A DNA stretch of 62,590 nucleotides. It comes from an uncultured Gammaproteobacteria bacterium (GTDB lineage: Bacteria > Patescibacteriota > Patescibacteriia > Patescibacteriales > GWC2-42-12). A program made the position numbers and the translations under genes. The notes under the pieces were generated by a model. It ran no database searches. It saw only the letters and a program-made list of their open reading frames with translations, and was not told where the DNA came from. The DNA lies in contig CAZHZE010000004.1 in NCBI GenBank assembly GCA_964537265.1, positions 1-62,590 of the forward strand. The letters run 5' to 3'. Each line of letters opens with the position of its first letter. Position 1 is the stretch's first letter. This document shows positions 5,701 through 26,233 of the stretch, piece after piece.

Positions 5701-5783
5701 AAATAAAGTTAAAAGTAGAAAGTTAAAAGTAGAAAGTTAAAATATTTATTATTTACTTTTAACTTTATAAACTTTAGACTATT

Positions 5784-5984
5784 CTATTTTTTTTCTTTTT
5801 TAATTTTGCTTTTTATCTTTAAAACTTCACGGCCTTTATAAGAACCGCAAAAATCACAAGCGCGATGAGGTAAGACAGCTTTACCGCATTTCGGGCATTT
5901 ATTTGTTTTAACTTTTTTTAAAGCTTGGTGTGAACGGCCGCGTCGGGCTTCGCTTCTGCACCTTCGTTTTGCTGGTACTGACAT
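5784..5984 (-). CDS. rpmF: 50S ribosomal protein L32 (Zn-ribbon type)
   Basis: MSVP..RRSH-like N-terminus, CPKC and CDFC; start moved to the ATG at 5984. Confidence 0.92.
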   Translation of the reverse strand: MSVPAKRRCRSEARRGRSHQALKKVKTNKCPKCGKAVLPHRACDFCGSYKGREVLKIKSKIKKEKK

Positions 5985-6109
5985 AAAATAATAAGTCAAA
6001 AATCAAAAGTAAAAAGTCGAAAGACTTTAATTTCTGAATTTTGTATTCTTGTTAATTGTTAAATTTAATTAAATTATAACTTAAAAAACTTGTTTAAGTC
6101 AAGCTAAAA

Positions 6110-7144
6110 TTAAAGAATTAACATAGCATCGCCATAACTAAAAAATCGATATTTCTTCTTAACTGCGGTCTTATAGGCTTTAAAAACTTTATCGCGTCCG
6201 GCAAACGCGCTAACTAACATTATTAAAGTCGATTTAGGTAAATGAAAATTGGTAATCATGCCGTCAACCGCAAGAAATTTATATGGCGGATAAATAAAAA
6301 TATCAGTCCAGGCGGCATAATCTTTTTTTGCTCCCTTTTTAAACGCGCTTTCTAAGGTTCTAGCTGAAGTTGTGCCTACCGCGATTATTCGCCTGCCGTC
6401 GTTCTTAGCTTTTAGAATTCTAGTTAATGTATTTTTATTGATTTCAGCATATTCACTATGCATTTTATGTTTAGTTATATCATTAACCTTAACCGGTGCA
6501 AATGTGCCTAACCCGACTTGTAAGGTTACATATTCAAATTGCACGCCTTTTTTCTTAAGTTCGTTAATTAATTTTTTTGTAAAATGAAAGCCGGCTGTAG
6601 GCGCGGCAACCGAACCAACTTTTTTATCATCCGCGTAAACGGTTTGATAATTTTTCTGATCGCTTTTAACTTTTTGTGCACGTTTAATATAGGGCGGTAA
6701 AGGCGTTAAGCCGATTTTTTCTATCAATTTATTAAAAGCAGAACCTTTTTTATTAAATTTAACTTGCCAAGTTCCGTCTAAATTATTTTTTAAAATTTCT
6801 GCTTTTAAACATCTATCAAATTCGACTTTCAAATTTTCTTTTCTCTTAGGTCCGCCAATTAAACATTGCCAAACACCGGGTTTTATTTTATTTAATAAAA
6901 AAACTTCAACTTTCCCGCCGGTTTCTGCTCGCTTACCAATAAGCCTCGCTGCCATTACTTTAGTATTATTTAAAACTAAAACATCGCCTTTCTTTAAAAA
7001 ATTTATAATATCATAAAAATTCTTATGTTGAATTTCGCCGGTTAATTTTTCCAAAACTAAAAGCCGCGAATGGTCTCGCGGACTAATAGGCTTTTGGGCG
7101 ATTAAATTTTTTGGTAAATTATAATCAAATTTTTTCAGCTTCAT
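6110..7144 (-). CDS. queA: S-adenosylmethionine:tRNA ribosyltransferase-isomerase QueA
   Basis: FDYNLP..LIAQ, PLPPYIKR, YQTVYA, SVAAPTAGFHFT, TNFHLPKST, YRFFSYGDAM; start moved to 7144. Confidence 0.96.
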   Translation of the reverse strand: MKLKKFDYNLPKNLIAQKPISPRDHSRLLVLEKLTGEIQHKNFYDIINFLKKGDVLVLNNTKVMAARLIGKRAETGGKVEVFLLNKIKPGVWQCLIGGPKRKENLKVEFDRCLKAEILKNNLDGTWQVKFNKKGSAFNKLIEKIGLTPLPPYIKRAQKVKSDQKNYQTVYADDKKVGSVAAPTAGFHFTKKLINELKKKGVQFEYVTLQVGLGTFAPVKVNDITKHKMHSEYAEINKNTLTRILKAKNDGRRIIAVGTTSARTLESAFKKGAKKDYAAWTDIFIYPPYKFLAVDGMITNFHLPKSTLIMLVSAFAGRDKVFKAYKTAVKKKYRFFSYGDAMLIL

Positions 7145-7670
7145 GCAATTTTTTATTTTCTTCAACTAGTTTAATTACAATATCCCTAACTTTTTCTGGA
7201 TTAGGAATTTCTTTAAAAACAAATCTCTGCACTTCACCGGCCGTCTGAACATAAACATTGCCGTAATGAAAAATAAATTGCCAAACACCCTTAAGTTCGC
7301 TGGCCACATCTTGAATTTTAGAAATTTTTAATTCAGCGACTGTGCGCGAAAAAAATCCTTCCTGTTTAACATCAATTATTCGCCGATTAGTTATTATCCA
7401 CATATCTAAATAATAATCAATAAAAGTAAAAAAACTAAAAAGCCAAATAAATAAAATATAGCCGCTTATCGCTACGACAATTAAAGGATAAGAAATTTCA
7501 CCTACTAATAAATTGGGATAAAGATTTAAAGCGACAAAACCAACTAAAGCCGGCAAACCTAATAAAACTATAATTAAAACAAAGTGGGAAAACAACACAA
7601 AAATGTCTTTCCTTAAAATTTTTACAATTTTTTCACCTGGTAATTTTTCCAACAATTTAAAAATTAACAT
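7125..7670 (-). CDS. membrane protein with bacterial PH domain
   Basis: Two N-terminal TM helices, then WIITNRRII..Q.GFF.R..AEL..IQDV...YGNVYVQTAG. Confidence 0.75.
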   Translation of the reverse strand: MLIFKLLEKLPGEKIVKILRKDIFVLFSHFVLIIVLLGLPALVGFVALNLYPNLLVGEISYPLIVVAISGYILFIWLFSFFTFIDYYLDMWIITNRRIIDVKQEGFFSRTVAELKISKIQDVASELKGVWQFIFHYGNVYVQTAGEVQRFVFKEIPNPEKVRDIVIKLVEENKKLHEAEKI

Positions 7671-7679
7671 AAAAAATAA

Positions 7680-7940
7680 TTAAAAATTACTAACTCCAAA
7701 CATATTAGTACTACCTTGAAAAATTGTTAAACCGATTTCCCAATCAATTTGGCTTAAATATCCATAAGATAAATATAATATTACTATTGAACCGGCAATA
7801 TAAATAAAGGTAGTAAAAAAAGTTAGAAAGTTAACTTGACCATATTTTATTATATGAAAAAGTGCTATAAAACTAAAAATTATCCAAACAACAACAAACA
7901 ATAAGTATAAAAATAAAACGCTAATTAAAGGAATAGTCAT
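7680..7940 (-). CDS. small two-TM membrane protein
   Basis: Hydrophobic 86-aa ORF packed in an operon. Confidence 0.7.
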   Translation of the reverse strand: MTIPLISVLFLYLLFVVVWIIFSFIALFHIIKYGQVNFLTFFTTFIYIAGSIVILYLSYGYLSQIDWEIGLTIFQGSTNMFGVSNF

Positions 7941-7946
7941 ATGTTT

Positions 7947-8243
7947 TTAATAAGATGTACATTCATATTTAAATTTTATACCACAATTTTTATTTACCCA
8001 TTTTTCGTAGCTAGGGTTGCCGACGTAATTGACCCCCTCATGGGGCATGCAGTCAGTACCTTGAATATATATTTTTGACTCTTCATTATAAATAAGCTTA
8101 GTTAAATCTGGACAAATAAATTCTTCTTTTTCCAAACTTCCTTCTTGTAAATTAAATATAACCCAATAATATAAACTAACAATAAATAATAAAAAAACCA
8201 TTGAGATTATCAATAAATAAATTATTTTTTTCTTTAATGTCAT
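7947..8243 (-). CDS. hypothetical membrane-anchored protein
   Basis: N-terminal TM helix, four Cys; in operon behind ruvB. Confidence 0.65.
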   Translation of the reverse strand: MTLKKKIIYLLIISMVFLLFIVSLYYWVIFNLQEGSLEKEEFICPDLTKLIYNEESKIYIQGTDCMPHEGVNYVGNPSYEKWVNKNCGIKFKYECTSY

Positions 8244-8253
8244 AAAAAATTAA

Positions 8254-9276
8254 TTATATCATTTTATCTTGCTCGGGTTTATTTTTTCCTAAATGTTTAT
8301 AGGCCGTATCAGTAGCCACCCGGCCGCGCGGCGTTCTATCTAAAAATCCTAATTGCATTAAATAAGGTTCATAAACTTCTTCGACGGTCGCGATATCCTC
8401 AGCCGCGGCCGCGGCGATAGCCGATAACCCGACCGGTCCGCCGTTAAATTTATCAATAATTACTTCTATAATTTTTCTATCTACCCAATCAAGGCCTAAA
8501 TCATCAACTTCCAAAAGTTTAAAAGCTTGTTGGCAATAATTTAAGTTAATATCTCCATTACCTTCAACCTGGCAATAATCGCGTACTCTTTTTAATAACC
8601 GATTAGCGACGCGAGGCGTGCGACGCGAACGCTTAGCGATTTCTTCGGCCGAATCATGAGGCAAATCAATGTTTAAAATCTTGGCGCTCCTGTCAATTAT
8701 TTTTTTAATATCTTTAGGTTCATAAAAATCCAAATGATAAGTCATACCGAAACGATCGCGCAAAGGCGAAGACAATAAACTAATTTTCGTAGTCGCGCCG
8801 ATAATCGTAAAACGCGGTAAATCAATACGCAAAGTTTTAGCCGACGGCCCTTTACCGATTATTATATCTAAAGCATAATCTTCCATGGCCGGATAAAGTA
8901 TTTCTTCAATGGTTTTATTAAGCCGATGAATCTCATCAATAAATAAAATATCGCCTTGATTAAGATTAGTTAAAATTGCGGCTAAGTCGCCTGATTTTTC
9001 TATCACCGGTCCAGAAGTTACTCTTATGTTAGCATCCAGCTCATTAGCAATAACATGCGCTAAAGTAGTTTTTCCTAATCCAGGCGAACCATATAATAAA
9101 ACATGCTCAATAGATTCATTTCTGCCTTGAGCCGCTTTAAGAAAAATCCGTAAATTTTCCTTAATCTTATCTTGCCCGACAAATTCGCTTAATTTCTTTG
9201 GGCGTAAAGTTAAATCCAAAGTTTTATCATCAGCCAACTCCTCAGGTTGAGTGACTCGTTCGTTTGTATCTGTCAT
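8254..9276 (-). CDS. ruvB: Holliday junction branch migration helicase RuvB
   Basis: [45 protein letters not shown]. Confidence 0.97.
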
Positions 9277-9324
9277 GCTTATATTTTAACATTTATCTAG
9301 TAATGTTTCAAACTGATTAATATT

Positions 9325-9353
9325 AAAAAACACCGCAATAATAGCGGTGTTTT
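9325..9353. terminator. intrinsic terminator (palindromic, A/T-flanked)
   Basis: aaaacaccgc/gcggtgtttt stem. Confidence 0.7.
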
Positions 9354-9371
9354 AAATTAACTATTTTAATT

Positions 9372-10172
9372 TTATTTCCCCTTCTTCGGCATCTCCCCAT
9401 TCAAAGCTTTTTTAACTATATCTTTTGTTTCTTCGGAAAAATCGGCGCTTAAAATCCAACTTAAAAATCCCGGATCTGTTTCGGCCACGTCGGCGAGCGA
9501 CCTATCTTTATGTTTAGAAAAAGCTAAATAAGCTTCGCCGCCGCGCCAATAAAATTTACGATCCGCGTCAACGAAGCGATCGTCTATAATATGATGAATT
9601 TTATAAATAAAATCCCAGTCTCTAGTTTCTTTATACTTTTCTAATTGCTTAGTTAAAACTTCAGCCGTGGCTTCGACGTCGCCTAAAGCGTTATGCGCTT
9701 CTTCATGATCCTTTTTGCAATAAAATTTATAAGCCGCGGAAAGCGTGCGCGGTTCCATGCAATGATAAATAATTTTAGCGTCAATAATTTTTGAATTAGT
9801 ATAATCAAAATCTTTGCCGGCCCTTAAAAATTCGCGTTTTAGAATAGGCAAATCAAAAGTTAAAACATTAAAACCGCTATAATAGCAACCGTTAAAAATA
9901 TCCCAAAATTCTTCAGCCATATCTTTAAAAGTCGGCTGATTTTTTACATCCTCGTCTGAAATGCCGTGAATAGCGAAAGCTTCGGCCGGAATTTTCATTT
10001 CCGGATTTAAAAATAAATCGCCTTTTAAAATTTCCCCGTCTGGCATAATTTTCATATAAGCGATTTCCACGATTCTATCTAAATTAATAGATAAACCAGT
10101 AGTTTCTAAATCAAAAACCACTAACGGTTTGTCTAAAGAAAGCAGTTCATTTATTTTTTTTGTTTTTGCCAT
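9372..10172 (-). CDS. DEDDh 3'-5' exonuclease (DNA Pol III epsilon-like)
   Basis: VFDLETTG, HGISDEDV, FNVLTFD, HNALGD; start moved to 10172. Confidence 0.88.
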   Translation of the reverse strand: MAKTKKINELLSLDKPLVVFDLETTGLSINLDRIVEIAYMKIMPDGEILKGDLFLNPEMKIPAEAFAIHGISDEDVKNQPTFKDMAEEFWDIFNGCYYSGFNVLTFDLPILKREFLRAGKDFDYTNSKIIDAKIIYHCMEPRTLSAAYKFYCKKDHEEAHNALGDVEATAEVLTKQLEKYKETRDWDFIYKIHHIIDDRFVDADRKFYWRGGEAYLAFSKHKDRSLADVAETDPGFLSWILSADFSEETKDIVKKALNGEMPKKGK

Positions 10173-10252
10173 ATCTTTTATTCTACAACAATTTTTTATA
10201 AATAAAAACACCCCCGATTTCTCAGGAGTGTTTTTTATCTGAAATAATCTTT

Positions 10253-10564
10253 TTACCAATTATTTCCGCCACGGTTGCCACCGCGATTTCCGCCGAAACT
10301 TCTTTTAGGTCTGTCTTCCTGAGGTCTAGCCTCATTAACAGTAACCTGGCGGCCTTCAATCTCTTTGCCGTTAAACATATCAATAGCGGCTTGAGCTTCT
10401 TCTTCGGTTGACATTTCAACAAAACCGAAACCTTTTGATCTTCCAGTCATTTTATCCATGATAACAATGGCTGAAGCAACGGTACCGGCCTGAGAAAAAG
10501 CTTCTTTTAAGCCGTTTTCATTGGTGGAGTATGGTAAACCACCGATGTATAATTTTTTGTTCAT
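10253..10564 (-). CDS. RRM RNA-binding protein
   Basis: RNP2 LYIGGL, RNP1 KGFGFVEM, Gly/Arg-rich tail. Confidence 0.95.
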   Translation of the reverse strand: MNKKLYIGGLPYSTNENGLKEAFSQAGTVASAIVIMDKMTGRSKGFGFVEMSTEEEAQAAIDMFNGKEIEGRQVTVNEARPQEDRPKRSFGGNRGGNRGGNNW

Positions 10565-10710
10565 AACTTTCTTACGCTTTTAGGGATATTCTAAATCCCA
10601 TAATAATTAAATGTAAGTCGACTTTCTTATTTTACCTTTTAATTACGCTAAAGCATAAGAAAAGAAAAATAACTCTTACAAAAGAAGTATAGCCTATATT
10701 AGCTAAAATG

Positions 10711-11049
10711 TCAAGTTAAAAACTCTTTTACTTCATTAATAACCTCTTCTGGCACTGGATTTCTCTTTGGACTAACTCCGGGATAACGCCAGGCGCTAAT
10801 AATTTTATAGCGGCCTTTTATATTTTGATACATGGCCCAAATTTCCGAACTCCAAGTTTTTTTCTTATTATTAACCGAAGATGGCTGCATAACTGCAGTT
10901 GTATTTTCTGCCACACCTTCTTCAACTCTCGCTGGCCGATTAATCACGCGTAAAACTCTCTGCGCCGTTAAGCCATAATATTTCATTTTACCAATGGCAT
11001 GGCTGGTCCAATAATATTTATCCGTGTTTTTAGGAGGTTTAAATTGCAT
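10711..11049 (-). CDS. hypothetical protein, DUF4258-like
   Basis: WTSHA..KM.......V..VI..P pattern. Confidence 0.6.
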   Translation of the reverse strand: MQFKPPKNTDKYYWTSHAIGKMKYYGLTAQRVLRVINRPARVEEGVAENTTAVMQPSSVNNKKKTWSSEIWAMYQNIKGRYKIISAWRYPGVSPKRNPVPEEVINEVKEFLT

Positions 11050-11054
11050 GTTAT

Positions 11055-11522
11055 TTATTTTTTATTCGGCAAAGGCGCATTAACCATTTCCTCTAAAGTC
11101 TGCCTAGAAATTTTATCTAAGCCTATACCCAGCCAATTATACCATCGCCAATGCCAAATTGCCGGTTTATCGCTTAATTGCATATCTAAAGTTTTAGGAT
11201 CTATATTGCCAGAATAAAGATTGCCGTAAGCGTAAACCGAGCCCCTAATCATTTGTTCATCCAGAGAAAGCCTTATTTTTTTCGTATTTAATTCATCACC
11301 AAAAAAACGATAACAAAATTCTCCAAAATTTTTATTTTGATTAAACTCTTGATTATATTCTTTTTCTTGCAAAGCATAAGCATGACTTCTTAATTTCTGA
11401 GATAAAATAAACCCATAATCAGGGTTTGTTTTATAATTAAAAATAATTAGTGAAGTTAAAAAAATAATAAAAATTAAAATTATTAAGAGCAATAACAAAA
11501 AAATTTTAATTTTTTTGGCCAT
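11055..11522 (-). CDS. hypothetical membrane-anchored protein
   Basis: N-terminal hydrophobic helix; operonic spacing. Confidence 0.7.
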   Translation of the reverse strand: MAKKIKIFLLLLLIILIFIIFLTSLIIFNYKTNPDYGFILSQKLRSHAYALQEKEYNQEFNQNKNFGEFCYRFFGDELNTKKIRLSLDEQMIRGSVYAYGNLYSGNIDPKTLDMQLSDKPAIWHWRWYNWLGIGLDKISRQTLEEMVNAPLPNKK

Positions 11523-11525
11523 ATC

Positions 11526-11876
11526 TTATTCGCAGCAATTTATTAATTCCATTATTTCTTCTTGATGATTTTTTATGATATCCTGGGGCCGAAAATTAGA
11601 AGAAAATTCCGCAAGCTTTTCAACCACTTTAATTAAATCCTCTTTAGCTGGATTATTAAAATCGGCTCCAACTTCTTCAAATTTATTTTTTACAAAACTT
11701 TCCATATTCATTTTTCTAATCTGCTCAAACTCCTGATCATTTATTTCCTGATTATATTGCTTCATCATTTCTAATGTTTCCGAATGCGCTAAAATAAAAC
11801 ATCTTAATATAGCATCTCTTACCATAATTGGAGTTAATTTTTGGGAGGTGTCCAAACCATAAATTATTTTACCCAT
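11526..11876 (-). CDS. hypothetical helical protein
   Basis: 116-aa ORF directly downstream of tRNA-Ser. Confidence 0.7.
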   Translation of the reverse strand: MGKIIYGLDTSQKLTPIMVRDAILRCFILAHSETLEMMKQYNQEINDQEFEQIRKMNMESFVKNKFEEVGADFNNPAKEDLIKVVEKLAEFSSNFRPQDIIKNHQEEIMELINCCE

Positions 11877-11957
11877 ATTTTTAGGTTAATTTTTAAAGCG
11901 ATATTATATGCTTATTATTATTTTATAATATTTATTAATTTCGCTGAATGTAAAACT

Positions 11958-12047
11958 TGGCGGAGAGGGCGAGATTTGAACTCGCGAAGGGCGTTAACCC
12001 TTGCCGCTTTTCGAGAGCGGTACCTTCAACCACTCAGTCACCTCTCC
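11958..12047 (-). tRNA. tRNA-Ser(CGA), CCA encoded
   Basis: GGAGAGG acceptor stem, CCGCT-CT CGA AA-AGCGG anticodon arm, long variable arm, TTCAAAT T-loop. Confidence 0.96.
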
Positions 12048-12062
12048 AATCTTGCAACTATT

Positions 12063-12404
12063 TTACTTTAACAGCATTAACTCACCGATGGCAAGTAGTA
12101 ACCAAAAAAATAATCCGGCCGTAGTGTAAAATAAAAGTTTTAAGGCTTGTTTCTTCTTGCCGTCTAAATAATACAAAATCGGCCGGCCTAAAACTAACGA
12201 ACTAGTAATTAGGGCTGACAAAATGAAAATCATTAGCATAGTCATGCCAGCTAACATTTCATTGGTTTGACCAATAAATTTTCCCGCGCTGTTCATAAAC
12301 CAAACCACTAACGCCACATAAATAAAAACTAGCGCCGAGTGGAGAATGGCAAACAAAACTAAGTCTTTTTCTTCGTTGTTGTTTTTGTTGAAAAAAATCT
12401 TCAT
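12063..12404 (-). CDS. small membrane protein (3 TM)
   Basis: Hydrophobic ORF in operon. Confidence 0.75.
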   Translation of the reverse strand: MKIFFNKNNNEEKDLVLFAILHSALVFIYVALVVWFMNSAGKFIGQTNEMLAGMTMLMIFILSALITSSLVLGRPILYYLDGKKKQALKLLFYTTAGLFFWLLLAIGELMLLK

Positions 12405-12408
12405 ATAT

Positions 12409-12741: not shown

Positions 12742-14152
12742 AATTTTTTTCTAAATTTATCATACTTATCATAGCAACGAACAACCAAAACATAATGGAT
12801 AAATCATTTTTAAAATATGGCACATCAACAATGCCGTGAATTACTATTGCGACCATAGCGCAAATTAGACCGATATTTATATATTTATAATTAACAATTA
12901 GCTGCCGGCAATTTTTAAACCCAATATAAAAATATTTTAAAATTATCCAGATAAAAAGCAATAAACCGGCTAAACCTAATTCGCTCCAAAAATTTAAAAT
13001 TATATTATGGGGGTATAAATATATTTCTAAAGGCTGCCACATTTTTTTTCTATATTCCGCGCTATTGCGTAAATTTTTTAGCCAATCTGGGTCATCATTT
13101 TTTATAAAAAATCCTTCGGCATGATAAGGCGCAACCGCGGTTTTAAAATTAGCCAAACCAGCGCCAGTTATTAAACGATTATCTTTTAGCATTCCCCAGC
13201 TCTCTTCCCAACCTACCATTCTTATCTGGCCGGAAAAAGTTTTAAAAGTTATTGTATCATAAACTAATTTTTTAGACGGTTGATAAGTTACTATGCCAAC
13301 ACCAATTAATATGCAAAAAATAATCGTTACCCATCTTATTTTTTTATTAACTAATAAACCGAAAACCACTAAGCCAACCGCTAAACCTAATAAAGCGCCT
13401 TTTGATTTAGCAAAATAAATTGATAAAACGGACGTTACAATAACTAAAACGATAAATATTTTTTTAAAAGTTTTGGCATTAAAAATTGTTTGAAAATTAG
13501 AAATTGAAAATTGAAAATTTTTTATTGAACCGACTAACCATCCTGTTAAAACTAAAACAATCGGCCCTAAATATAATCCGACCGCGTTAGGATAACCAAA
13601 AAAAGAAACTACTCGCCGCGTTTCCGGCGCCGCCCAAATTGGATTATAAATCAATTGGCCGGTTATTTTTTGATAAATCGCTAAAAATGAAACGGCTAAA
13701 GCGCTTAAAGCCAATGACCATAAAATTTTCTCGCGGCCTTTATCCCCCTTCATAACATTAACTACCACTATAAAAAACATAACTGATTCAAAAAAATAAG
13801 CTTTAAAAATTCCCAACGAGCTTGAGCTAAAACTAGAAACGCCAACAGCAACAAAAGCCACTAATAACAAAAAAATAAGTTCCCAATCAAACGGATAACG
13901 AATTTTAACTTTTTTGTTTTCTTTTTTAAAATTTTCTAAAAAATTATTTTTAATCAGGCTAAAATTTTTAATTAACCAAACTAAAAATACAATCCAAATC
14001 ATTATTTCTAATAAAGTTGCTGGCACCCCAAAAATATTAAATCTAATCAGATAAGACGGTAAAGCTGCAATTAAAAACATAACCGCCCAATCCAAGCGAC
14101 GCCAGGAAAAAATAAAAAATAAAATAGTAAAAATTAAAATTAAATAAATCAT
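12722..14152 (-). CDS. O-antigen ligase (Wzy_C/WaaL) family membrane protein
   Basis: Multi-TM; R..SFFGYPNAVG, SKGA, R...W, YPHNIIL..WSELG..G. Confidence 0.85.
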   Translation of the reverse strand: MIYLILIFTILFFIFSWRRLDWAVMFLIAALPSYLIRFNIFGVPATLLEIMIWIVFLVWLIKNFSLIKNNFLENFKKENKKVKIRYPFDWELIFLLLVAFVAVGVSSFSSSSLGIFKAYFFESVMFFIVVVNVMKGDKGREKILWSLALSALAVSFLAIYQKITGQLIYNPIWAAPETRRVVSFFGYPNAVGLYLGPIVLVLTGWLVGSIKNFQFSISNFQTIFNAKTFKKIFIVLVIVTSVLSIYFAKSKGALLGLAVGLVVFGLLVNKKIRWVTIIFCILIGVGIVTYQPSKKLVYDTITFKTFSGQIRMVGWEESWGMLKDNRLITGAGLANFKTAVAPYHAEGFFIKNDDPDWLKNLRNSAEYRKKMWQPLEIYLYPHNIILNFWSELGLAGLLLFIWIILKYFYIGFKNCRQLIVNYKYINIGLICAMVAIVIHGIVDVPYFKNDLSIMFWLFVAMISMINLEKNYGENNI

Positions 14153-14161
14153 CTTTTTAAT

Positions 14162-15127: not shown

Positions 15128-15289
15128 AATATCTTATTTTCTAATAATATTTTAACATCTTTTGCCCATTCTTGCGAGCCGGCTTTATAAGAACAAATTT
15201 AATAATTTTTACCCTTGATTTTTTATGTTTTTTGTTGTAACATCATTTTAAAGATAAATGCAAATTAAAAACTTATAAGGGGGTATAGT

Positions 15290-15817: not shown

Positions 15818-15900
15818 AATTTTCAAATTACCACAGGCCAATTCATTTTTATGAATTGGCCATTTTTTATAAAAAAACCCATTCAGAATATGAACGGGCG

Positions 15901-16248: not shown

Positions 16249-16286
16249 TCCTTATTCCTCCTTTTTTATATTTAATTTTTTTATTT

Positions 16287-17390: not shown

Positions 17391-17394
17391 ATTA

Positions 17395-18246: not shown

Positions 18247-18284
18247 ATTTATATATCTTGAATTAACTAAATATTTTTAAATAA

Positions 18285-18435
18285 CCCGGGGGTTTGGGGT
18301 GACGAATAAGCGCCATTGCTTACAGTAATAAGGTAAATCAATATGATAGCGCATTGAGGCACCCCAAGACTTTTTGCTTACTTTTTAGTCATAAAAAGTA
18401 AGGCCCGCGGCAGCGTTACTGTGGCGTATGACACA
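18285..18435. repeat. GC-enriched multi-hairpin element (MITE-like or leader RNA)
   Basis: ttggggtg/caccccaa long stem plus cttacttttt/aaaaagtaag hairpin in an otherwise AT-rich spacer. Confidence 0.45.
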
Positions 18436-18496
18436 CAACAATTATAAATCATTTAATAACTATTTTATAAAAATATGTCTAGTGATTTTAATTTTA

Positions 18497-18522
18497 GATT
18501 CCGGCTCGAAGGCCGGAATGAC
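18497..18522. repeat. REP/dRS3-like palindromic unit
   Basis: GATTCCGGC-tcgaag-GCCGGAATGAC. Confidence 0.55.
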
Positions 18523-18530
18523 AAGCTTTT

Positions 18531-19745
18531 TTAATCTACCTCAACCTGATTATTTTTGCAAATTTCACTATAAATTTTAACGCTTGATTGCGGTGTGCGT
18601 TTGAAAGTCTGACGATCTACTTTATATAATCCAAACTTTTGCGTAAAGCCATCCGCCCATTCAAAATTATCAAGTAGCGACCAGTGAGAATAACCTCTAA
18701 CATCAACGCCTTCGGAAATTGCTATATAAACATTTTTTAAAGACTCTTTAATAAACCAAGCGCGATATTTATCCTGACCATCGGAGACGCCATGCTCGGT
18801 TATGTAAATCGGCTTATAATATTTTTTTAAATCTAATAAAACATGATAAATACTTTTAGGATAAATCTCCCAGCCAAAATCGGATACGATTTTATTTTCA
18901 TTTTTATTAAACCCATAATTTATAACATTCCTGCGATAATGATTCAAACCGATAAAATCCTGATAATTTTTTATTTGATTTAAAAAATAAAAATTCCACC
19001 ACCAATCAGCCAACTTTTTTAAAATAACATTTATAAATTTTTCTTCGTAAGCTTCAAAATAAATATTATGTTTAGATATTCCTACTTGCGCGCGCGGCGA
19101 AATGGCTTTAATTTTTTTATAAGCTAATTTATGTACTTTAATTAAACGCTTAAGCACTCTTAAATAAATTAACGGGCTTTTTCTATTAGGTGGAAACTTT
19201 CCGGTTAAATAAGAATAGCCGCTATAAATATCCGGCTCGTTTAAAGTCGTCCAAAAAATTACCTCACTTTTAAACTCATTAACAATTTTTTCAACATAAC
19301 GAAAAAAATATTTTTCGACTTTCCGAGAATTCCAGCCGCCAAAATCTCTTACCCAAATCGGCACGGGATAATGCCAAAGAGTAACGAAAGGTTCAATATT
19401 ATTAGCTTTTAACTTTCTAATAATATTTCTATAATAATCAATCGCTTGATCATTAAATTTTCCGTTAGCCGGCTCAACTCGCGACCAGTCAATAGAAAAT
19501 CGATAAGATGTTACGCCTAATTCTTTTAAACATTTTAAATCTTCGTCAAATATTTCAAAAGAGTTGCAGGCTTTACCTGAAATATAATCATCTGGATTTT
19601 TTTCGCTAACTTTTAATTGCTTAATTCTTGCTTCGGATTTTTCCCACTGACTCCAATCATTATTAAGACCGCCTTCAACTTGATGAGCAGAAGTGGCCAC
19701 GCCCCAAAAAAAACCAACTGGAAATTTTAAAATTTTATTTGGCAT
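18531..19745 (-). CDS. glycoside hydrolase family 1 (beta-glucosidase-like)
   Basis: FFWGVATSAHQVEG, YRFSIDWSR, TLNEP acid/base, ITEHG nucleophile, DNFEW. Confidence 0.92.
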   Translation of the reverse strand: MPNKILKFPVGFFWGVATSAHQVEGGLNNDWSQWEKSEARIKQLKVSEKNPDDYISGKACNSFEIFDEDLKCLKELGVTSYRFSIDWSRVEPANGKFNDQAIDYYRNIIRKLKANNIEPFVTLWHYPVPIWVRDFGGWNSRKVEKYFFRYVEKIVNEFKSEVIFWTTLNEPDIYSGYSYLTGKFPPNRKSPLIYLRVLKRLIKVHKLAYKKIKAISPRAQVGISKHNIYFEAYEEKFINVILKKLADWWWNFYFLNQIKNYQDFIGLNHYRRNVINYGFNKNENKIVSDFGWEIYPKSIYHVLLDLKKYYKPIYITEHGVSDGQDKYRAWFIKESLKNVYIAISEGVDVRGYSHWSLLDNFEWADGFTQKFGLYKVDRQTFKRTPQSSVKIYSEICKNNQVEVD

Positions 19746-19850
19746 ATAGTTTATTATAACATTTTTATCTTTTAGGCGAAAACTGCTGTAATTTAATTGA
19801 CTTTTCGCTAAAATTATTATAAAGTTAAAAAATCAAAATAAATAAAAATC

Positions 19851-21818
19851 ATGAATATAACCGAGTTGGCCAGAATTTTAAAAGTTCCTACCCAAGAGCT
19901 GCGCGATAAATTGCCGCTCATGGGTTTTGATATTGGACAAAAAGCCATTAAAGTTGATAATAAAATTGCTCAGCGCATTCTTAAGGAATGGGCGATTTTA
20001 AATAGACAACTGGAAGCAAAAATGCAAGCTGAAAAAAAATCTGCAACTTCAGAATCTATAATCAACCAAGAAAAAAAAGAAATAAAAATTCCTCCGTTTA
20101 TAACTGTGCGCGATTTTTCTGCAGTCACTAACGTTCCGGTTAATAAAATTTTGGCTGAATTAATGAAAAATAGCATCTTTAGTTCGCTTAATGAAAAAAT
20201 TGATTTTGACACCGCGGCTATTATCGGCGCTGATTTAGGATTAAATATAATTCCAGCCGAAGAACTAGAAAATCAAATTGAAAACGAAGCTAATGTTTTA
20301 AAACAAGTTTTAGGACAAGAAAAACAAGATAACTTAACTTCCCGCCCTCCTATTATTGTAGTCATGGGCCATGTTGACCATGGCAAAACAAAACTATTAG
20401 ACGCTATCAGACAAACCGATGTCGTGGCTGGTGAGGCCGGCGGCATTACTCAGCATATCGGCGCTTACCAGATCGTGCATAAAAATAAACCTATCACTTT
20501 TATAGATACTCCAGGCCATGAAGCTTTTACGGCCATGAGAAATCGCGGCGCGCGCATTGCCGATATTGCTATTTTAGTTGTAGCGGCTGATGATGGCGTA
20601 AAGCCTCAAACCGTTGAAGCTTTCCGCATTATTGAAGCGGCCAAAATTCCTTTTATCGTTGCCATTAATAAAATTGATAAACCAGAAGCTAATATTGATA
20701 TGGCTAAAAGAGAGTTGGGCGAACAATTAAATATTATCCCTGAAGATTGGGGCGGAAAAACTCTCTGTCTGCCGATTTCCGCTAAAAATAAATTGGGTAT
20801 TGACGAACTTTTAGACATGCTACTTTTAACTGCTGATATGGAAGCAAAAAATATTATAGCCAATCCGAACGCCAGCGCCTCAGGTACAATTATTGAATCG
20901 CATATTGATCGCGGACAAGGTCCGGTAGCAACAGTTCTAATCCAAAATGGAACTTTAAAAGTTGGCGATCCCATGATTTTTAACGGATTATTCTACGGTA
21001 AAGTAAGAGCCTTAAAAGATCATAATGGTAAAGATATTAAATTAGCTCTGCCTTCTACTCCGGCAAAAATTATCGGTTTAAAAATGGCGCCAGTCATTGG
21101 CGATATCATGCAAATCGGGCAAGGCGAAAAAATAAAAGCCAGTAAAATTTTCTCGCGTGCGGCCGAACCAGCAAAACAGCAAGAGGAAAAGAAAGCCGCG
21201 GTTGATGTAAAAAATATTAATTTAATTATTAAAAGTGATGTTTTAGGTTCTGGCGAAGCTATCGAAGGATCGCTCGCGAAAATCGACCAGGAAGAAGTTA
21301 AAATAAATATTATCGCTAAAGGCTTAGGCAATATCACCGAAGGAGATATTGCACGAGCCGAAGGCAGCCAAGCAAAAATTTTAGGCTTTAATGTACAAAT
21401 AACTCCACAAGCTCAAAAATTAGCCAGAGAAAAAAACGTTGAAGTTAAAAGTTATAAAGTAATTTACGAATTAATTAACGACCTAAAAACCGAAGTTGAT
21501 AGTTTAATAGAAGCAAAAATGGTTAGAGTAGATTTAGGACGCATGAAAGTATTAGCAATTTTTAGAACTGAAAAATCTAGCCAAATTGTCGGGGGCAGAA
21601 TAATAGACGGAAAAGCTGAAGCTAATTCTTTAATTGAAATTATCCGCGATAAACAAATTTTAGCCGAAGGCAAATTGGCAAAACTGCAAATGGCCAAACA
21701 AGACGTAAGCGTAGTCGAAGCCAACCAGGAATGCGGCATTAATTTTGAAGGTAAGCCGGTTATTCAAGTTGACGATATATTGCAATTTTATAAAATGGAA
21801 AAAGAAAAAAAGAATTAA
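19851..21818 (+). CDS. infB: translation initiation factor IF-2
   Basis: [34 protein letters not shown]. Confidence 0.97.
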
Positions 21819-21904
21819 ATAGTAAAAAGTTTATAAAGTCGAAAGTCATAAAGAATAAAAAATAAAAATATTAACTTTAAAACTTTCAACTTTTGACTAA
21901 TTTT

Positions 21905-22237
21905 ATGCCTCGCCGAATAGAACAACTAAATGAACAATTAAAAGAAGAGATAGCTAATCTAATAGTAAAAGAAGTACCTTTAAACAACGGCTTAATAACC
22001 GTTTGTTTTGTTAATTGCTCGCCGGACTTAAAATATGCTAAAATCGCTATCTCGGTTTTACCGGATAAATTTGGACCGTCAACTTTAAAAAAACTGCAAA
22101 AATTTTCCAGCGTTTTTAGCAATGCCTTAAGGCATAAATTAAAAATCAGGCAAATTCCTAGATTTCATTGGGTATTAGATACAACCGAAAGTAAAGCGAC
22201 GGAAATAGAAGAAGTGATTAAGGATCCTAATTTCTAA
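21905..22237 (+). CDS. rbfA: ribosome-binding factor A
   Basis: RIEQLNEQLKEEIA, SPDLKYAKI, RQIPRFHW.LD; follows infB. Confidence 0.9.
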   Translation: MPRRIEQLNEQLKEEIANLIVKEVPLNNGLITVCFVNCSPDLKYAKIAISVLPDKFGPSTLKKLQKFSSVFSNALRHKLKIRQIPRFHWVLDTTESKATEIEEVIKDPNF

Positions 22238-22241
22238 TTTT

Positions 22242-23195
22242 ATGAATAATTCCCTTTTTACTAAAGCCTACAACTTAATTACACAAGCTAATAATATACT
22301 GGTCGTTACCCATGAACAGCCAGACGGCGACGCTTTAGCTTCAGTATGCTTAATGGCCGAGGTTCTAAAGCTGGCAGAAAAAAAATATAAACTCTATTGT
22401 CATAATCAAGTCAACCATCAATACGCTTTTTTACCACATTTAGACGAATTAAAAAACTCTTATGAAAAATTTGATTTTGATTTAATTGTTGCTCTAGACT
22501 GCGGCAGTATTGCGCGCACGAAATTAGAAAAAGAAATTTTAAAACGCAATAAAAATCAATTAGTAATCGAAATTGATCATCATCCAAAAATAAAAGATTA
22601 TGCCGATCTGGAAATACGCGATTCGGCCGCGGCCGCCACTACGGAAATATTATATTATTTTCTTAAAGCCAATAAAATAAAAATCAATAAAGATTTAGCT
22701 AGTTGTATTTTAACCGGTATTTTAACCGACACGGGTAATTTTCTTTATCCTTCAACCTCTCCGGAAACGGTTAACATCGCTTCTGAAATGTTAATTAGAG
22801 GAGCAAAACTTCCGCAAATTATGGAAAATACCTGGCGCAATAAATCAATCGCTTCTATGAAAACTTGGGGCAAAGCCATGTCCGAATTAAAAATAAATAA
22901 AAAATATAATTTTGGTTTTACGGTTTTAAAAAGCGAGGATGTACCGGCCGAAGTAACCGAAGAAGAACTAGAGGGCATGTCTGGATTTTTAAGTAACTTA
23001 AGTTCGGTTAACGGAGTAATGCTACTTCGCCAAATGCCTGATGGAAAAATAAAAGGCAGTTTGCGCACCTCCAATCCTAAAGTTGATGTTTCTAAATTAG
23101 CGCGAATTTTAGGCGGCGGCGGACATGCTAAAGCCGCCGGCTTCTCGGTTGAAGGAAAATTAGAAAAAACAAAAGAAGGGTGGAAAATTGTTTAA
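22242..23195 (+). CDS. nrnA: DHH/DHHA1 phosphoesterase (NrnA-like)
   Basis: THEQPDGDA, LDC, IDHH, TDTGNF, GGGGHAKAAG. Confidence 0.88.
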   Translation: MNNSLFTKAYNLITQANNILVVTHEQPDGDALASVCLMAEVLKLAEKKYKLYCHNQVNHQYAFLPHLDELKNSYEKFDFDLIVALDCGSIARTKLEKEILKRNKNQLVIEIDHHPKIKDYADLEIRDSAAAATTEILYYFLKANKIKINKDLASCILTGILTDTGNFLYPSTSPETVNIASEMLIRGAKLPQIMENTWRNKSIASMKTWGKAMSELKINKKYNFGFTVLKSEDVPAEVTEEELEGMSGFLSNLSSVNGVMLLRQMPDGKIKGSLRTSNPKVDVSKLARILGGGGHAKAAGFSVEGKLEKTKEGWKIV

Positions 23196-23387
23196 AAATT
23201 TCTAACTTTCAATTTCTAATTTCTAAACAATGAATTAATATTTTAATGTAATAATTAATTAAAAATTAAATCATTGGAAATTGTTTGAAAATTGAAAATT
23301 GAAAATTAATAACATTGACTTTAAAATAAATTAGAACTATTATTAATTATATTTTATTTTTTATATTTAATTCTTAATTGAAATTAT

Positions 23388-23966
23388 ATGCCTTTAATAC
23401 CAACAGTCATTGAAAAATCCGGTCAAATTGAACGGGCTTACGATATTTATTCCCGGCTCTTAAAAGACCGCATTATTTTCTTAGGCGAGCCGATCACTGA
23501 TCACACAGCCAACATTATTATCGCCCAATTTTTATTTTTGGACGCTGAAAGCAAAGGCAAAGACATTAAATTTTACATTAATACTCCGGGCGGATCGGTA
23601 ACGGCCGGCATGGCGATTTACGACACCATGCAATATATTAAATCCGATGTTTCTACTATTTGCGTCGGACTAGCCGCTTCTATGGGCGCGGTTTTACTCG
23701 CGGCCGGAGCCAAAGGTAAAAGATTTGTTCTGCCGAATTCGGAAATTTTAATCCATCAGGTTATGGGCGGATTTGAAGGCCAGGCTTCAGACATTAAAAT
23801 TCACTCTGAACATATTTTGAAAATCAGAGAAAAGCTAAATAAAATTTTAGCTAAAAGCACAGGCCAGCCGATCGGCACAATTGAAAAAGATACTGACCGC
23901 GATCATTTTATGAGCGCGGACGAAGCAGTTAAATATGGGATAGTTGATAAAGTGATTGTAAAATAA
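23388..23966 (+). CDS. clpP: ATP-dependent Clp protease proteolytic subunit
   Basis: [21 protein letters not shown] (Ser), ILIHQ (His), DTDRD. Confidence 0.97.
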
Positions 23967-23976
23967 ATTAAATAAT

Positions 23977-24009
23977 AAAAAACACGCCTCTGAATGAGAC
24001 GTGTTTTTT
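23977..24009. terminator. bidirectional intrinsic terminator
   Basis: aaaaaacacg/cgtgtttttt stem between clpP and a convergent ORF-less unit. Confidence 0.7.
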
Positions 24010-24013
24010 ATTA

Positions 24014-24131
24014 AATAGAAGCGAGGATAATGCTGGGGATCTTTATAGAATTTAAAGGCCTATAAGTTTTAAATGCCTAATTCTATAATAAGAGGTGAGC
24101 CTCCGATCTCAGCATTACTCTCGCTTCTATT
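24014..24131 (-). ncRNA. candidate small RNA forming a long branched hairpin
   Basis: Near-perfect ~28-bp outer stem (aatagaagcgag..taatgctg..gatc with its complement), consensus promoter upstream, terminator downstream, no credible ORF. Confidence 0.5.
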
Positions 24132-24186
24132 GTTTTTAAAGATTTATTAAATTTGACTTTATTAAGCTTTTTAAGCTTAATAAATA

Positions 24187-24215
24187 AATATAGCACATAT
24201 TTTAAATATTGTCAA
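24187..24215 (-). promoter_or_regulatory. sigma70-type promoter for candidate sRNA
   Basis: TTGACA-17-TATATT with extended TG. Confidence 0.65.
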
Positions 24216-24344
24216 GTCTTTTTATAATTATTATTTATTTTTGGCTAATAATAAAGCAAAAATAAACATCACACTACTCTCTTATTAATAAGTAGGTGGA
24301 CAATGTTTACTACTTGCAAAACTATCTAGCTTGTGTTAAGCTAA

Positions 24345-24480
24345 AAAATGTTCACTAGGTCAAATAAGGTTATTTGACCGTGTACGAATATAATTATTAA
24401 TAATCAACAGCAGTCGGATAGCTAGCCCTGTAATTATTTAACGAATATTCAACCGGGCCTACAGATAAAGCAGATTAGAT
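24345..24480 (+). ncRNA. structured rny leader, possibly a 6S-like RNA
   Basis: TTGCAA-17-TAAGCT promoter at 24314-24342; nested stems with bubbles; position upstream of rny. Confidence 0.3.
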
Positions 24481-24614
24481 TAATTTACTTTTTTGTGACA
24501 TTTAGTATTTCTTCTAAAACTAAATCTTTCCCTAAAAATATTTTGTCCAAACTAAATTAAATTTGGTCCTGTTTTATTATAAAAAATTCGCCTCCGACGC
24601 TGGAATATCATTTT

Positions 24615-26132
24615 ATGTATTACGCAATTATTGGAATTCTAGCTTTAATCGGTGGTTTTTTTGTTGGCTATTTAGTAAGAAAAAGCCGCGCCCTGGCTCA
24701 GGTATCAAGCGCTGAGGCTCGTGCGGAAAAAATCTTAGCTGAAACAAAAGCCAAACAAAAAGAACTTCTTCTTGAAGCTCAAGACAAAGCTTTAAAAATC
24801 ATTGAGGAATCTAAGCATGAAGAAGAAAAACGCCGCCAGGAAATAAATAGCCTGCAATCAAGGTTGGAAAAACGCGAAACCGTGTTCTCGCAAAAATTAT
24901 TGGAATTGCAGGATAAACAGCAACTTCTCTACGACAAAGTAAACAAAGTTGAAGAAGTTAAAGAAAAAATTAAAAAAATTCATGAGGAACAGCTGGCTAA
25001 ACTGGAAAAAATCGCCAATCTTTCTAAAGAAGAGGCGAAACAAGTTTTATTTAAAAACGTTGAAAACGATATTAAAGACGACTTAGTTATTAGAATTAAT
25101 AAATTAGAAAAAGAATCTTCTGATGCTTTAGATGAAAAAGCTCGCGATCTAATGGCCAGCTCCATGCAGCGTCTAGCTTCAACTTACGCCACGGAAATTA
25201 CTACTACTACGGTTGACTTGCCCAATGACGAAATGAAAGGACGCATTATCGGTCGCGAAGGCAGAAATATAAAGGTTATTGAACAAATGACCGGCGTAGA
25301 AATTATTGTTGACGACACTCCTAACGCCATCACTATTTCTGGTTTTTCTCCGATTAGGCGCCATATCGCAAAAAAAACTTTAGACCATTTAATAAAAGAC
25401 GGGCGCATTCATCCGACTAAAATTGAAGATGCTATTAAATTAGCTAAAGAAGAATTAGCTATTGATATTAAAAAGGCCGGCGAAGAAGCTATGTACGAAG
25501 TAGGCGTTGCTGGCTTTGATCCTAAATTAGTGCAAATTGTCGGACGCTTAAAATATCGTTCTAGCTACGGACAAAACGCTTTAAAACATTCTGTTGAAGT
25601 TGCACATTTATCGGCTTTAATCGCCGAGGAATTAGGCGCGGACGTTACGCTGGCTAAAAAAGGCGGACTGCTTCATGATATCGGTAAGGCCGTAGATCAT
25701 GAAGTACAGGGAACTCATCCGGAAATCGGCGCCAATATCGGAAAGAAATTTAATTTGGCTCCGGAAATTATCGCACCAATTTTAACCCATCATGAAGATC
25801 GCCCCGACGGTTTAATTTCCGTAATTGTTAAAGTCGCCGACGCTATCTCCGCCGCTAGGCCGGGAGCACGCCGTGATACTTTTGATCAATATATACAACG
25901 ATTAGAAGAATTAGAAAAAATCGCCACTTCTTTTGAGGGCATTGAAAAAGCTTATGCTATTCAGGCCGGACGAGAAGTCAGAGTTTTTGTCACTCCGGAT
26001 AAAATTGATGATTTGGCCGCAATTAATTTAGCTAAAGATATCGCCAAAAAAATTGAGCAAGAATTAAAATATCCTGGCGAAATAAAAGTTAATGTAATTA
26101 GAGAAATGAGAGTGACCGAATACGCACGGTAA
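24615..26132 (+). CDS. rny: ribonuclease Y
   Basis: N-terminal TM, coiled coil, KH (GRIIGREGRNI), HD (LLHDIG), RPGARR. Confidence 0.97.
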   Translation: MYYAIIGILALIGGFFVGYLVRKSRALAQVSSAEARAEKILAETKAKQKELLLEAQDKALKIIEESKHEEEKRRQEINSLQSRLEKRETVFSQKLLELQDKQQLLYDKVNKVEEVKEKIKKIHEEQLAKLEKIANLSKEEAKQVLFKNVENDIKDDLVIRINKLEKESSDALDEKARDLMASSMQRLASTYATEITTTTVDLPNDEMKGRIIGREGRNIKVIEQMTGVEIIVDDTPNAITISGFSPIRRHIAKKTLDHLIKDGRIHPTKIEDAIKLAKEELAIDIKKAGEEAMYEVGVAGFDPKLVQIVGRLKYRSSYGQNALKHSVEVAHLSALIAEELGADVTLAKKGGLLHDIGKAVDHEVQGTHPEIGANIGKKFNLAPEIIAPILTHHEDRPDGLISVIVKVADAISAARPGARRDTFDQYIQRLEELEKIATSFEGIEKAYAIQAGREVRVFVTPDKIDDLAAINLAKDIAKKIEQELKYPGEIKVNVIREMRVTEYAR

Positions 26133-26233
26133 GTTTAAAGTTTAAAAGTTAAAAGTTTTAAAATAAAATGCCAATCAATTCATAATTTATTTAACTTTAT
26201 AACTTTATAACCTTCAACTTTTAACTAACATCT

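Follow-up and report, generated by a model that had tools for sequence, protein, structure and literature searches.

Inverted heptamer arrays at operon junctions of a Patescibacteria genome resemble gene-less copies of an intervening-sequence-like element

Introduction

Why should a bacterium carry, in the narrow spacers between the genes of its operons, long palindromes built from tandem seven-nucleotide repeats? The question is raised by a 62,590-nucleotide (nt) contig of an uncultured member of the Patescibacteriota (CAZHZE010000004.1, assembly GCA_964537265.1), the whole of which was analysed here and is called the window below. An initial annotation had described blocks of period-7 repeats, usually followed by their reverse complement, in its operon spacers, had taken them for a non-autonomous repeat family, and had suggested that they could be empty sites of an element whose inverted heptamer arrays flank genes for four-helix-bundle proteins in other genomes. 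Our analysis shows that hairpins without an open reading frame (ORF) occupy the intercistronic spacers of translation and RNA-processing operons in the window. We consider it fairly likely that they are ORF-less copies of a widespread palindromic element, similar to the intervening sequences (IVSs) of rRNA but situated in mRNA spacers, in which a TIGR02436 gene in the loop is optional.

Short, gene-less, multi-copy intergenic palindromes that are co-transcribed and vary between strains are well known from the Correia elements of Neisseria, ERIC/IRU and the pneumococcal BOX and RUP elements, and Correia hairpins are substrates of RNase III. Such families have a conserved consensus of 100–150 bp, defined terminal repeats and target duplications. 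Tandem heptamers form a separate strand of work, in which cyanobacterial STRR heptamers are said to have been described by Mazel et al. in 1990. Intergenic TAACTGA heptamers near start codons, left unexplained, have since been reported from Beggiatoaceae, Cyanobacteria and Bacteroidetes (MacGregor 2015; PMC4679880).

A close parallel to the elements considered here is the 23S IVS of Coxiella burnetii, in which terminal inverted repeats pair into a stem of 28 bp, two to three tandem GACAGAT heptamers of strain-variable number lie just before the ATG of the S23p gene, and RNase III excises the IVS in vitro with its 5′ cut falling where the first heptamer begins (PMC4990558). IVSs without an ORF are also known in rRNA, and the rRNA insertions of the candidate phyla radiation (CPR) include 23S_rRNA_IVP ORFs and the functionally uncharacterised family PF05635 (PMC11270868). 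PF05635/TIGR02436 proteins are structural homologues of Avd of the diversity-generating retroelements, a nucleic-acid-binding protein that acts together with a reverse transcriptase (PMC10053308).

Results

Heptamer hairpins at the operon junctions of the window

Genes were named from Pfam matches, inverted repeats were detected with a seed-and-extend script and tandem arrays with Tandem Repeats Finder (TRF). Two operons concern us here: queA-rpmF-nusB-rnc on the minus strand (7165 down to 4460, with rnc, encoding RNase III, at 4460-5152) and infB-rbfA-nrnA(DHH)-clpP-...-rny-ymdB on the plus strand (19851-27034). Four of their spacers, rpmF–nusB, infB–rbfA, nrnA–clpP and rny–ymdB, hold clear inverted heptamer arrays (Table 1), predicted to fold into AU-rich stems of 20–40 bp. 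The inverted arms of the spacer arrays measure 21–29 nt and are 80–86% complementary, sufficient for a stem of at least about 20 bp; the stems are long, AU-rich and interrupted, their loops span 10–48 nt, and the predicted RNA folds of the spacers are more stable than those of dinucleotide shuffles (z −2.3 to −4.7). The unit AAAGTNN, in forms that include AAAGTTA, AAAGTAG and AAAGTCG, is present at four junctions of the window.

The placement of the arrays is equally regular. Arms begin 0–10 nt past the upstream stop codon, 3′ arms stop 5–8 nt short of the ATG of rpmF, nusB, rbfA and ymdB, and no gene is disrupted, as the initial annotation had stated. Unlike these copies ending near an ATG, the nrnA–clpP hairpin ends before a promoter-like TTGACT-17-TATTAT. 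The period-7 blocks and their reverse complements were found as described; four of the seven examples that had been put forward are the clear inverted arrays just mentioned, and the other three are weaker, namely a hairpin with a faint period of 7 (5160-5225), an array with a short hairpin (5994-6058) and a hairpin lacking a convincing array (2335-2395). It is uncertain whether the first of these, in the nusB–rnc spacer, belongs to the heptamer family, and doubtful that the last, in the 23S rRNA leader, does, TRF having found no period-7 array in that hairpin (2307-2393).

The periodicity stands out from composition. Segments matching themselves at lag 7 in at least 17 of 21 positions number 7 in the window and 0.5 in local first-order Markov shuffles (about 14-fold), lag 14 gives 3 segments and none in the shuffles, and the remaining lags from 4 to 15 are at background. 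Arrays of (AAAGTNN)x3 with at least 13 of 15 fixed positions likewise number 11 where 0.9 are expected (about 12-fold). The period-7 signal that the initial annotation had proposed to scan for thus exceeds that of shuffled controls.

The same arms bracket TIGR02436 genes in other genomes

A metagenome scan for four consecutive AAAGTNN units (20 fixed bases) returned at least 120 array loci. Among the matches listed, the contigs range from 21 to 71% GC, and the recurrence of the motif at up to 71% GC means that base composition does not explain it. Also among the matches listed, many arrays are direct-only and adjoin start codons, and where both orientations lie together the order is strongly polar, with ACTTT repeats at most 200 nt after an AAAGT array in 18 cases and the opposite order in one. 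A hidden Markov model (HMM) built from 240 homologues places a TIGR02436 gene beside only 1–3 of the at least 120 array loci listed; most AAAGT arrays are therefore gene-less.

What the filled copies look like is best seen at locus L114, where an AAAGTNN x4 array begins directly past a stop codon and stops 6 nt short of a TIGR02436 ORF (118.5 bits, cutoff 24; E 1.4e-34), and where an inverted array (GCTTTAC ACTTTAT ACTTTTA ACTT) closely precedes the following gene, obg. Together with seven close homologues (63–69% identity), L114 makes up a set of eight independent loci that we call the Patescibacteria-type clade. All eight have AAAGT-core repeats upstream and ACTTT repeats downstream of the gene, which is co-directional with both neighbours in every case, and the AAAGT/ACTTT core is common to these arms and to the units of the window. 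As in gene-less copies, unit number varies among samples of filled ones (L151/L153/L155 and L158/L161).

The architecture extends beyond this clade and beyond this unit. In a betaproteobacterial clade, about 30% identical to the Patescibacteria-type proteins, all five loci carry GGGAGnnC/GnnCTCCC arms of period 8, and 17 IMG/VR loci found with a two-clade alignment have mostly inverted heptamers of other units (such as GAACGTT, GTTGCCA, GTAGTCT, GTTGGCT and GGCAGAA). Under uniform scoring, complementary flanking arms of period 7–9 are present at 23 of 28 TIGR02436 loci, with 7 the commonest period, followed by 8 and then 9. The link suggested in the initial annotation is thereby borne out elsewhere, and TIGR02436 is the only cargo that we found in heptamer elements. 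Copies that enclose the gene, which had been suggested as something to look for, do exist in other genomes, L114 among them; the window and its relatives gave none. A search of the window for a gene enclosed by distant arms found none either, and because a loop-encoded TIGR02436/PF05635 protein is absent, we file the window copies as ORF-less derivatives or relatives rather than as full members of the element class.

Several features of individual filled loci deserve mention. At L172 (1407-1967) a complete AAAGT/ACTTT hairpin, rather than a single arm, stands on each side of the TIGR02436 gene, an arrangement that suggests recombination between, or nesting of, hairpin copies. In two betaproteobacterial loci (L179 640-820 and L180 1020-1200) the GGGAG arrays upstream of the gene directly follow integrase-like reading frames, whose tyrosine-recombinase- or integron-integrase-like segments, KHYSLRTEDAYLHWIKR in L180 and DFEMRQITIREGKGQ in L179, were read by eye and are possibly parts of truncated genes. 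No reverse transcriptase, template or variable repeat adjoins the TIGR02436 loci examined.

Junctions are filled, emptied and refilled among relatives

Relatives of the window were found through the DHH-family protein encoded at 22242-23195, which retrieved 27 species-representative loci (L001–L027, 52–84% identity), all of them Patescibacteria metagenome-assembled genomes and several labelled Candidatus Falkowbacteria, and the window is accordingly assigned to a small Candidatus Falkowbacteria genome; near-identical DNA occurs in wastewater and anaerobic-digester metagenomes. The order infB-rbfA-nrnA-clpP-rny-ymdB around nrnA is kept in all 27, so that four orthologous spacers could be extracted and compared.

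The infB–rbfA junction illustrates the pattern. In 11 relatives the spacer is 0–12 nt long (2–12 nt in L004, L007 and others), and in the remaining genomes it holds a palindrome of 54–219 nt of at least six unrelated kinds: AAAGTNN arrays in the window and L005, TACGAAT-type arrays in L013, L026 and L027, CAGACAG in L016, a CCCCCTTTAACAAAGGGGG family in L001, L006 and L012, a nested TGTCATTGCGAG...GAAGCAATCTC form in L019 together with a partly related TGTCATTGCGGG form in L003 and L008, and others in L023 and L024. The other three junctions show the same turnover. At rny–ymdB, L005 has AAAGTNN units, L001, L007 and L019 have a GC-rich palindrome and L017 is empty; at nrnA–clpP, L013 has a similar element at the site of the window's hairpin, and in L016 and L017 the hairpin lies after rather than before the clpP promoter. 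Units are genome-specific (GGAACTC in L002, AATGACA in L003, AACTCGT in L006, AGGAATT in L021 and L014, AATTTTT in L007/L010/L017), and one unit recurs across several junctions of a genome, as AAAGTNN does at four junctions of the window and AATGACA on both sides of nrnA in L003. The long orthologous spacers in L022 and L010 were considered as carriers of gene cargo and set aside, since the genes that they contain are unrelated.

Since the palindromes differ from genome to genome and recur within a genome, we suggest that invasion of tight junctions took place repeatedly, in independent events, with a unit of its own favoured in each genome. That junctions are interchangeable or empty argues in turn that no particular sequence is required at a given one. 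The comparison of sites across relatives proposed in the initial annotation accordingly revealed sites that differ, being present, absent or replaced. Its view of a non-autonomous repeat family, possibly of gene-less sites, gains support from this presence/absence pattern and from the arms shared with TIGR02436 loci, with two of its seven examples doubtful as members.

Individual arrays also change in length. AAAGT hairpins are common to the window and L005 at two orthologous junctions, and at infB–rbfA an indel the size of one unit, within the 3′ arm, sets the two copies apart; a sister strain (run X7) lacks exactly 7 nt, one unit, at 23285. The arrays are points at which metagenome contigs break, with five or more different flanks, and assembler depth there is 3–13 times that of the surrounding genes (at least five flanks and 3–7x at 5701-5783; 4–13x at 23210-23370). 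Breaks and raised depth together indicate that the arrays are multi-copy at the level of the community. The heptamer arrays are, in sum, non-random, stem-forming and multi-copy, and they gain and lose units between strains.

Other palindromes share these junctions. A GC-richer nested palindrome, CTGTCATTGCGAG..GACGAAGCAATCTCAC....GAGATTGCTTCG..CTCGCAATGACAG, is found at the same junctions in L001, L004, L005, L007, L010, L011 and L019, and a related hairpin of the window, TTGTCATTCCGGCC..GGCCGGAATC, stands at the start of a 284-nt spacer (18247-18530). ORFs for DUF559, a Vsr-like endonuclease domain, lie within CCCCTCTCC...GGAGAGGGG GC-rich palindromes in L026 (17510-18010) and L114 (2248-2709), which resemble the ORF-less CCCCCTTTAACAAAGGGGG hairpins at junctions in L001, L006, L011 and L012. 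DUF559 and the GC-rich palindromes may be a second pairing of cargo and hairpin, analogous to TIGR02436 and the heptamers.

Arrays within coding sequence and the possibility of simple slippage

Heptamer arrays without an inverted partner also occur inside coding sequences (CDSs), at 13490-13521, 31265-31292, 37185-37212, 37863-37883 and 45515-45549, in recQ, an ELP3-like radical-SAM/GNAT gene, tsaD and a Wzy-like gene, where they code for lysine-rich loops. A 7-nt period is odd within a CDS because successive units are read in different frames. The tsaD array encodes the lysine-rich loop AAKLKDKSEKLKIKL, and the segment aligns to a native loop of Thermotoga maritima TsaD with an insertion of only 3 residues; the arrays in recQ and the ELP3-like gene fall in lysine-rich linkers. 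As insertions of the element the in-CDS arrays are doubtful candidates, and one to three of them could be due to chance. The RecQ homologue itself (30486-32555) is longer by about 190 residues between its helicase C-terminal domain, which ends at residue 330, and its zinc-binding domain, which starts at 523; the insert includes a weak winged-helix/MarR-like match at residues 459-493. Longer tandem repeats were noted as well: a 27-nt unit x2.6 at 28529-28598, in an unannotated 459-residue ORF (27773-29152), and a 51-nt unit x2.1 at 39262-39370, within the ORF 39087-40238.

AAAGT-like arrays in lysine-rich coding segments are what one might expect if all the heptamers were slippage-prone simple repeats of an AT-rich genome that became locally palindromic, through template switching for instance, and that had neither identity as an element, nor function, nor relation to TIGR02436. 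Unit-number indels between strains and relatives, units that differ among related genomes and a GC content of 29–37% outside rRNA point the same way. Slippage nevertheless leaves much of the evidence aside: only lags 7 and 14 rise above composition-matched shuffles, several spacers of a genome share one unit, the AAAGT core recurs in GC-rich contigs and in the arms of all eight loci of one TIGR02436 clade, and its polarity is biased as described. We find that an account by slippage alone fits poorly and is quite improbable.

Terminators, curated RNA families and translation starts

On a further account the operons are punctuated by the hairpins, which would be intrinsic terminators or attenuators of an atypical, AU-rich type. 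U-rich tracts do follow the hairpins, since a 3′ arm of the form (NNACUUU)n closes with UUUU or AUUU, and the nrnA hairpin precedes an independent clpP promoter. Conversely, a Rho-independent terminator scan called none of the heptamer hairpins, and at least 13 other gene ends of the genome have terminators of the usual kind, a GC-clamped stem followed by a T-run; the interrupted AU-rich stems with their 10–48-nt loops are of a different build, and several copies sit inside tight operons whose orthologous spacers are 0–12 nt. The terminator account fits poorly too, and we reject it as very improbable.

Searches of the window and seven relatives against Rfam 15, with gathering and E-value thresholds, matched only rRNA and tRNA and gave no family for the hairpins. 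TIGR-Tas or CRISPR-like arrays are ruled out by anatomy, there being no unique spacers between the repeats and an inverted partner for each array. We also dropped the idea that downstream genes are special in lacking a Shine-Dalgarno sequence: among the 66 called genes of the window only 10 have a Shine-Dalgarno-like 4-mer at −21 to −4, and initiation independent of it seems to be the rule in this genome.

Other structured regions and rRNA

The 648-nt clpP–rny spacer (23967-24614) is predicted to fold at −173 kcal/mol (z −12.5) and has no Rfam match. After the clpP terminator (23973-24013) it contains a hairpin of about 118 nt (24014-24131) with arms of 22 nt that show conservation in both L005 (11998-12116) and L007 (12313-12433), and the region is a candidate for an unannotated non-coding RNA or rny leader. 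Position 1 of the window falls within a 23S rRNA gene (minus strand, 1-2194) whose 5′ domain has three small expansions of about 55, 55 and 30 nt. Alignment of this 23S found no helix-45 IVS, only the small expansions. There is no 16S gene in the 600 nt upstream of the 23S gene, so the rRNA genes appear unlinked.

Table 1. Heptamer arrays and associated hairpins of the window. TRF, Tandem Repeats Finder; z, fold energy relative to dinucleotide shuffles.
Feature	Coordinates	Strand	Details
AAAGTNN/NNACTTT hairpin, rpmF–nusB spacer	5701..5783	-	Best copy; 14-nt double unit AAAGTTAAAAGTAG x2.7 at 5705-5742 (100% match, TRF score 76), then inverted TAACTTT units; arms 24–25 nt, 80–83% complementary; predicted fold −14.7 kcal/mol, z −3.06
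(NNACTTT)n array with short hairpin, rpmF 5′ leader	5985..6062	-	TRF period 7/14, period-7 array 5985-6023; array 14/15; predicted fold z −3.36; promoter-like TTGACT-18-TATAAT upstream at 6102-6073 (11/12 match)
23-bp hairpin, nusB–rnc spacer, directly upstream of rnc	5153..5238	-	Weak period 7, different unit (TRF AAATTTG x2.7 only); predicted fold −20.9 kcal/mol, z −4.69, 0/200 shuffles as stable
AAAGTNN/NNACTTT hairpin, infB–rbfA spacer	21819..21904	+	Array 21825-21898; predicted fold z −2.55
AATTTCT/TTGAAAA inverted hairpin, after nrnA stop, upstream of clpP promoter	23196..23315	+	Second unit family; TRF period-7 arrays 23197-23226 (AATTTCT) and 23285-23307 (TTGAAAA) pair; arms 29 nt, 83% complementary; predicted fold −20 kcal/mol, z −3.70; promoter-like site 23315-23343
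AAAGTTN/NAACTTT hairpin, rny–ymdB spacer	26133..26233	+	AAAGTNN then NNACTTT arrays over 26131-26226; TRF periods 7, 8, 15, period-7 arrays 26131-26162 and 26190-26226; arms 21 nt, 86% complementary; predicted fold z −2.34
28-bp hairpin, 23S rRNA leader	2307..2393	-	Predicted fold −18.3 kcal/mol, z −2.91
Four AAAGTNN heptamers in recQ	31265..31292	-	15/15 match; no inverted partner; in long inter-domain insert
Five AAGTTAA-type heptamers in tsaD	45515..45549	-	TRF period 7 x5.1, score 51; array 14/15; no inverted partner

Discussion

Using repeat statistics, comparison of orthologous junctions and a survey of TIGR02436 loci, our work suggests how hairpins built of tandem heptamers might come to sit between the genes of these operons. 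We propose that the arms of the element are inverted arrays of short tandem repeats, usually of 7 nt and sometimes of 8–9 nt, and that the element would enter tight gene junctions as a DNA palindrome and then be co-transcribed with the host operon. By analogy with the 23S IVS of Coxiella, the AU-rich stem could be cut by RNase III, and the spacer hairpins, whose stems have the length of its substrates, are probably cut by this enzyme, which the window encodes; excision or segmentation in the RNA would account for the element being tolerated, both at junctions and in rRNA helices. ORF-less copies would then relate to ORF-bearing ones as miniature to full-length elements, an ORF having been either lost from a hairpin or inserted into one.

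Several results weigh against this proposal. With tblastn and the HMM of 240 homologues, no TIGR02436 gene was found in the window (62.6 kb) or in L001–L027 (about 370 kb), and with no filled copy in the lineage of the window the link to that gene rests on a common architecture and a common core motif. Nor do all filled copies have a period of 7, since 8 and 9 occur as well. No target-site duplication or transposase was identified near any copy, so that mobility is argued from presence and absence alone; filled and empty infB–rbfA junctions, when compared, showed no target duplication, in spacers too short and divergent to decide the matter. Tests for selection at the RNA level gave no signal. 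Among 125 structured co-directional spacers of the window and its relatives the sense strand folds better in 61 and the antisense strand in 64 (Wilcoxon p=0.90), and mismatches in 31 long stems, read on the sense strand, comprise 16 G.U and 24 A.C with no excess of G.U. The palindromes thus look like features of the DNA, and a role of the RNA is neither supported nor excluded by these null results; the one metatranscriptome run yielded a few short contigs that carry no end information. Finally, the infB–rbfA hairpins of the window and L005 are 88% identical, and identical at all 28 positions of the 3′, rbfA-proximal arm, whereas third codon positions of six flanking genes are 62–69% identical. 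Neutral selfish DNA should not exceed synonymous sites in conservation, and the result agrees better with a function for the host or with concerted evolution.

It is this last comparison that lends weight to the main rival of the ORF-less element, namely that the hairpins are host regulatory 5′ leaders that control downstream translation or mRNA stability, with TIGR02436 genes as their secondary parasites. Regulation might work through translational coupling, a terminating ribosome melting the hairpin, or through an S1- or cold-shock-type protein that binds one OB fold per heptamer. The position of the 3′ arms close to the ATG of four genes would suit such a leader, as would the many direct-only AAAGT arrays at start codons among the metagenomic matches listed, and for the TAACTGA heptamers, which lie one to a few nt before start codons, binding of S1, Csp or CsrA has been proposed, with CspB cited as binding one heptamer per protein (PMC4679880). 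Yet many relatives have the same junctions empty (0–12 nt) or occupied by unrelated GC-rich palindromes, the hairpin of L016 and L017 lies beyond the clpP promoter, neither the sense-strand folding nor the G.U count shows the bias that a selected RNA might be expected to leave, and the scarcity of Shine-Dalgarno sequences is no peculiarity of the genes concerned. We therefore hold a primary regulatory role to be unlikely, and retain as the more plausible explanation an intervening-sequence-like element that travels with or without its gene.

Compared with known systems, the ORF-less element of the window comes closest to the 23S IVSs of Coxiella and Leptospira with their S23p/TIGR02436 genes. 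It shares with them an inverted-repeat stem of about 28 bp and strain-variable tandem heptamers, and its filled relatives carry the same protein family in the loop. It differs in that the window copies lie in intercistronic mRNA spacers, where a 23S IVS in the strict sense is found in helix 9, 25 or 45 of the rRNA, have no ORF, form loops of 10–48 nt and use an AT-rich AAAGTNN unit, and in that RNase III cleavage has been demonstrated for Coxiella whereas the window elements are known from sequence alone. Likeness to Avd concerns only a protein that the window does not encode, namely the cargo of filled copies. The TAACTGA repeats resemble the window elements in being intergenic, in two to six or more copies, near a start codon and in scattered lineages (PMC4679880), and the unit TAACT(GA) is similar to TAACT(TT) of the window. 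They are direct arrays, with 1 of 170 BOGUAY sets inverted, where the spacer copies of the window are inverted hairpin pairs, and no link to TIGR02436 was reported for them (PMC4679880). The window agrees with the TAACTGA/STRR class in its intergenic heptamers near starts, and has direct-only arrays solely within CDSs. The genome-specific 7-nt units of the arms, at sites where no target duplication was seen, also set them apart from elements of the Correia, ERIC and BOX type. From REP/BIME sequences the tandem-heptamer arms differ as well, a comparison made by build, with no search for RAYT genes. In the literature searched we met no account of inverted short-period arrays as a general feature around TIGR02436 genes, nor of gene-less versions at operon junctions, an absence that does not prove novelty. 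We read the hairpins as the architecture of an IVS in a setting other than rRNA and lacking the gene.

A bolder extension, to which we give little credence at present, is that the arrays are recognition sites of an oligomeric, Avd-like four-helix-bundle protein. Each arm has roughly four to five units, which would allow about one unit per subunit of a pentamer. Protein and arrays would then form a new kind of mobile or self-maintaining module, an intervening sequence of mRNAs and rRNAs alike, removed by RNase III, and the gene-less hairpins would be its miniatures, dependent on the protein in trans. Were this to hold, the 23S IVSs, the unexplained heptamers known from cyanobacteria, Beggiatoa and Bacteroidetes, and what PF05635 does would all have a single explanation.

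At a practical level, heptamer arrays break metagenome assemblies and create spurious ORFs. In Patescibacteria the gene-less versions adjoin the genes for RNase III, RNase Y, NusB, IF2 and RbfA. More broadly, three puzzles, the nature and spread of 23S IVSs, the role of the very common PF05635/TIGR02436 proteins and the excess of intergenic tandem heptamers in scattered lineages, are perhaps one.

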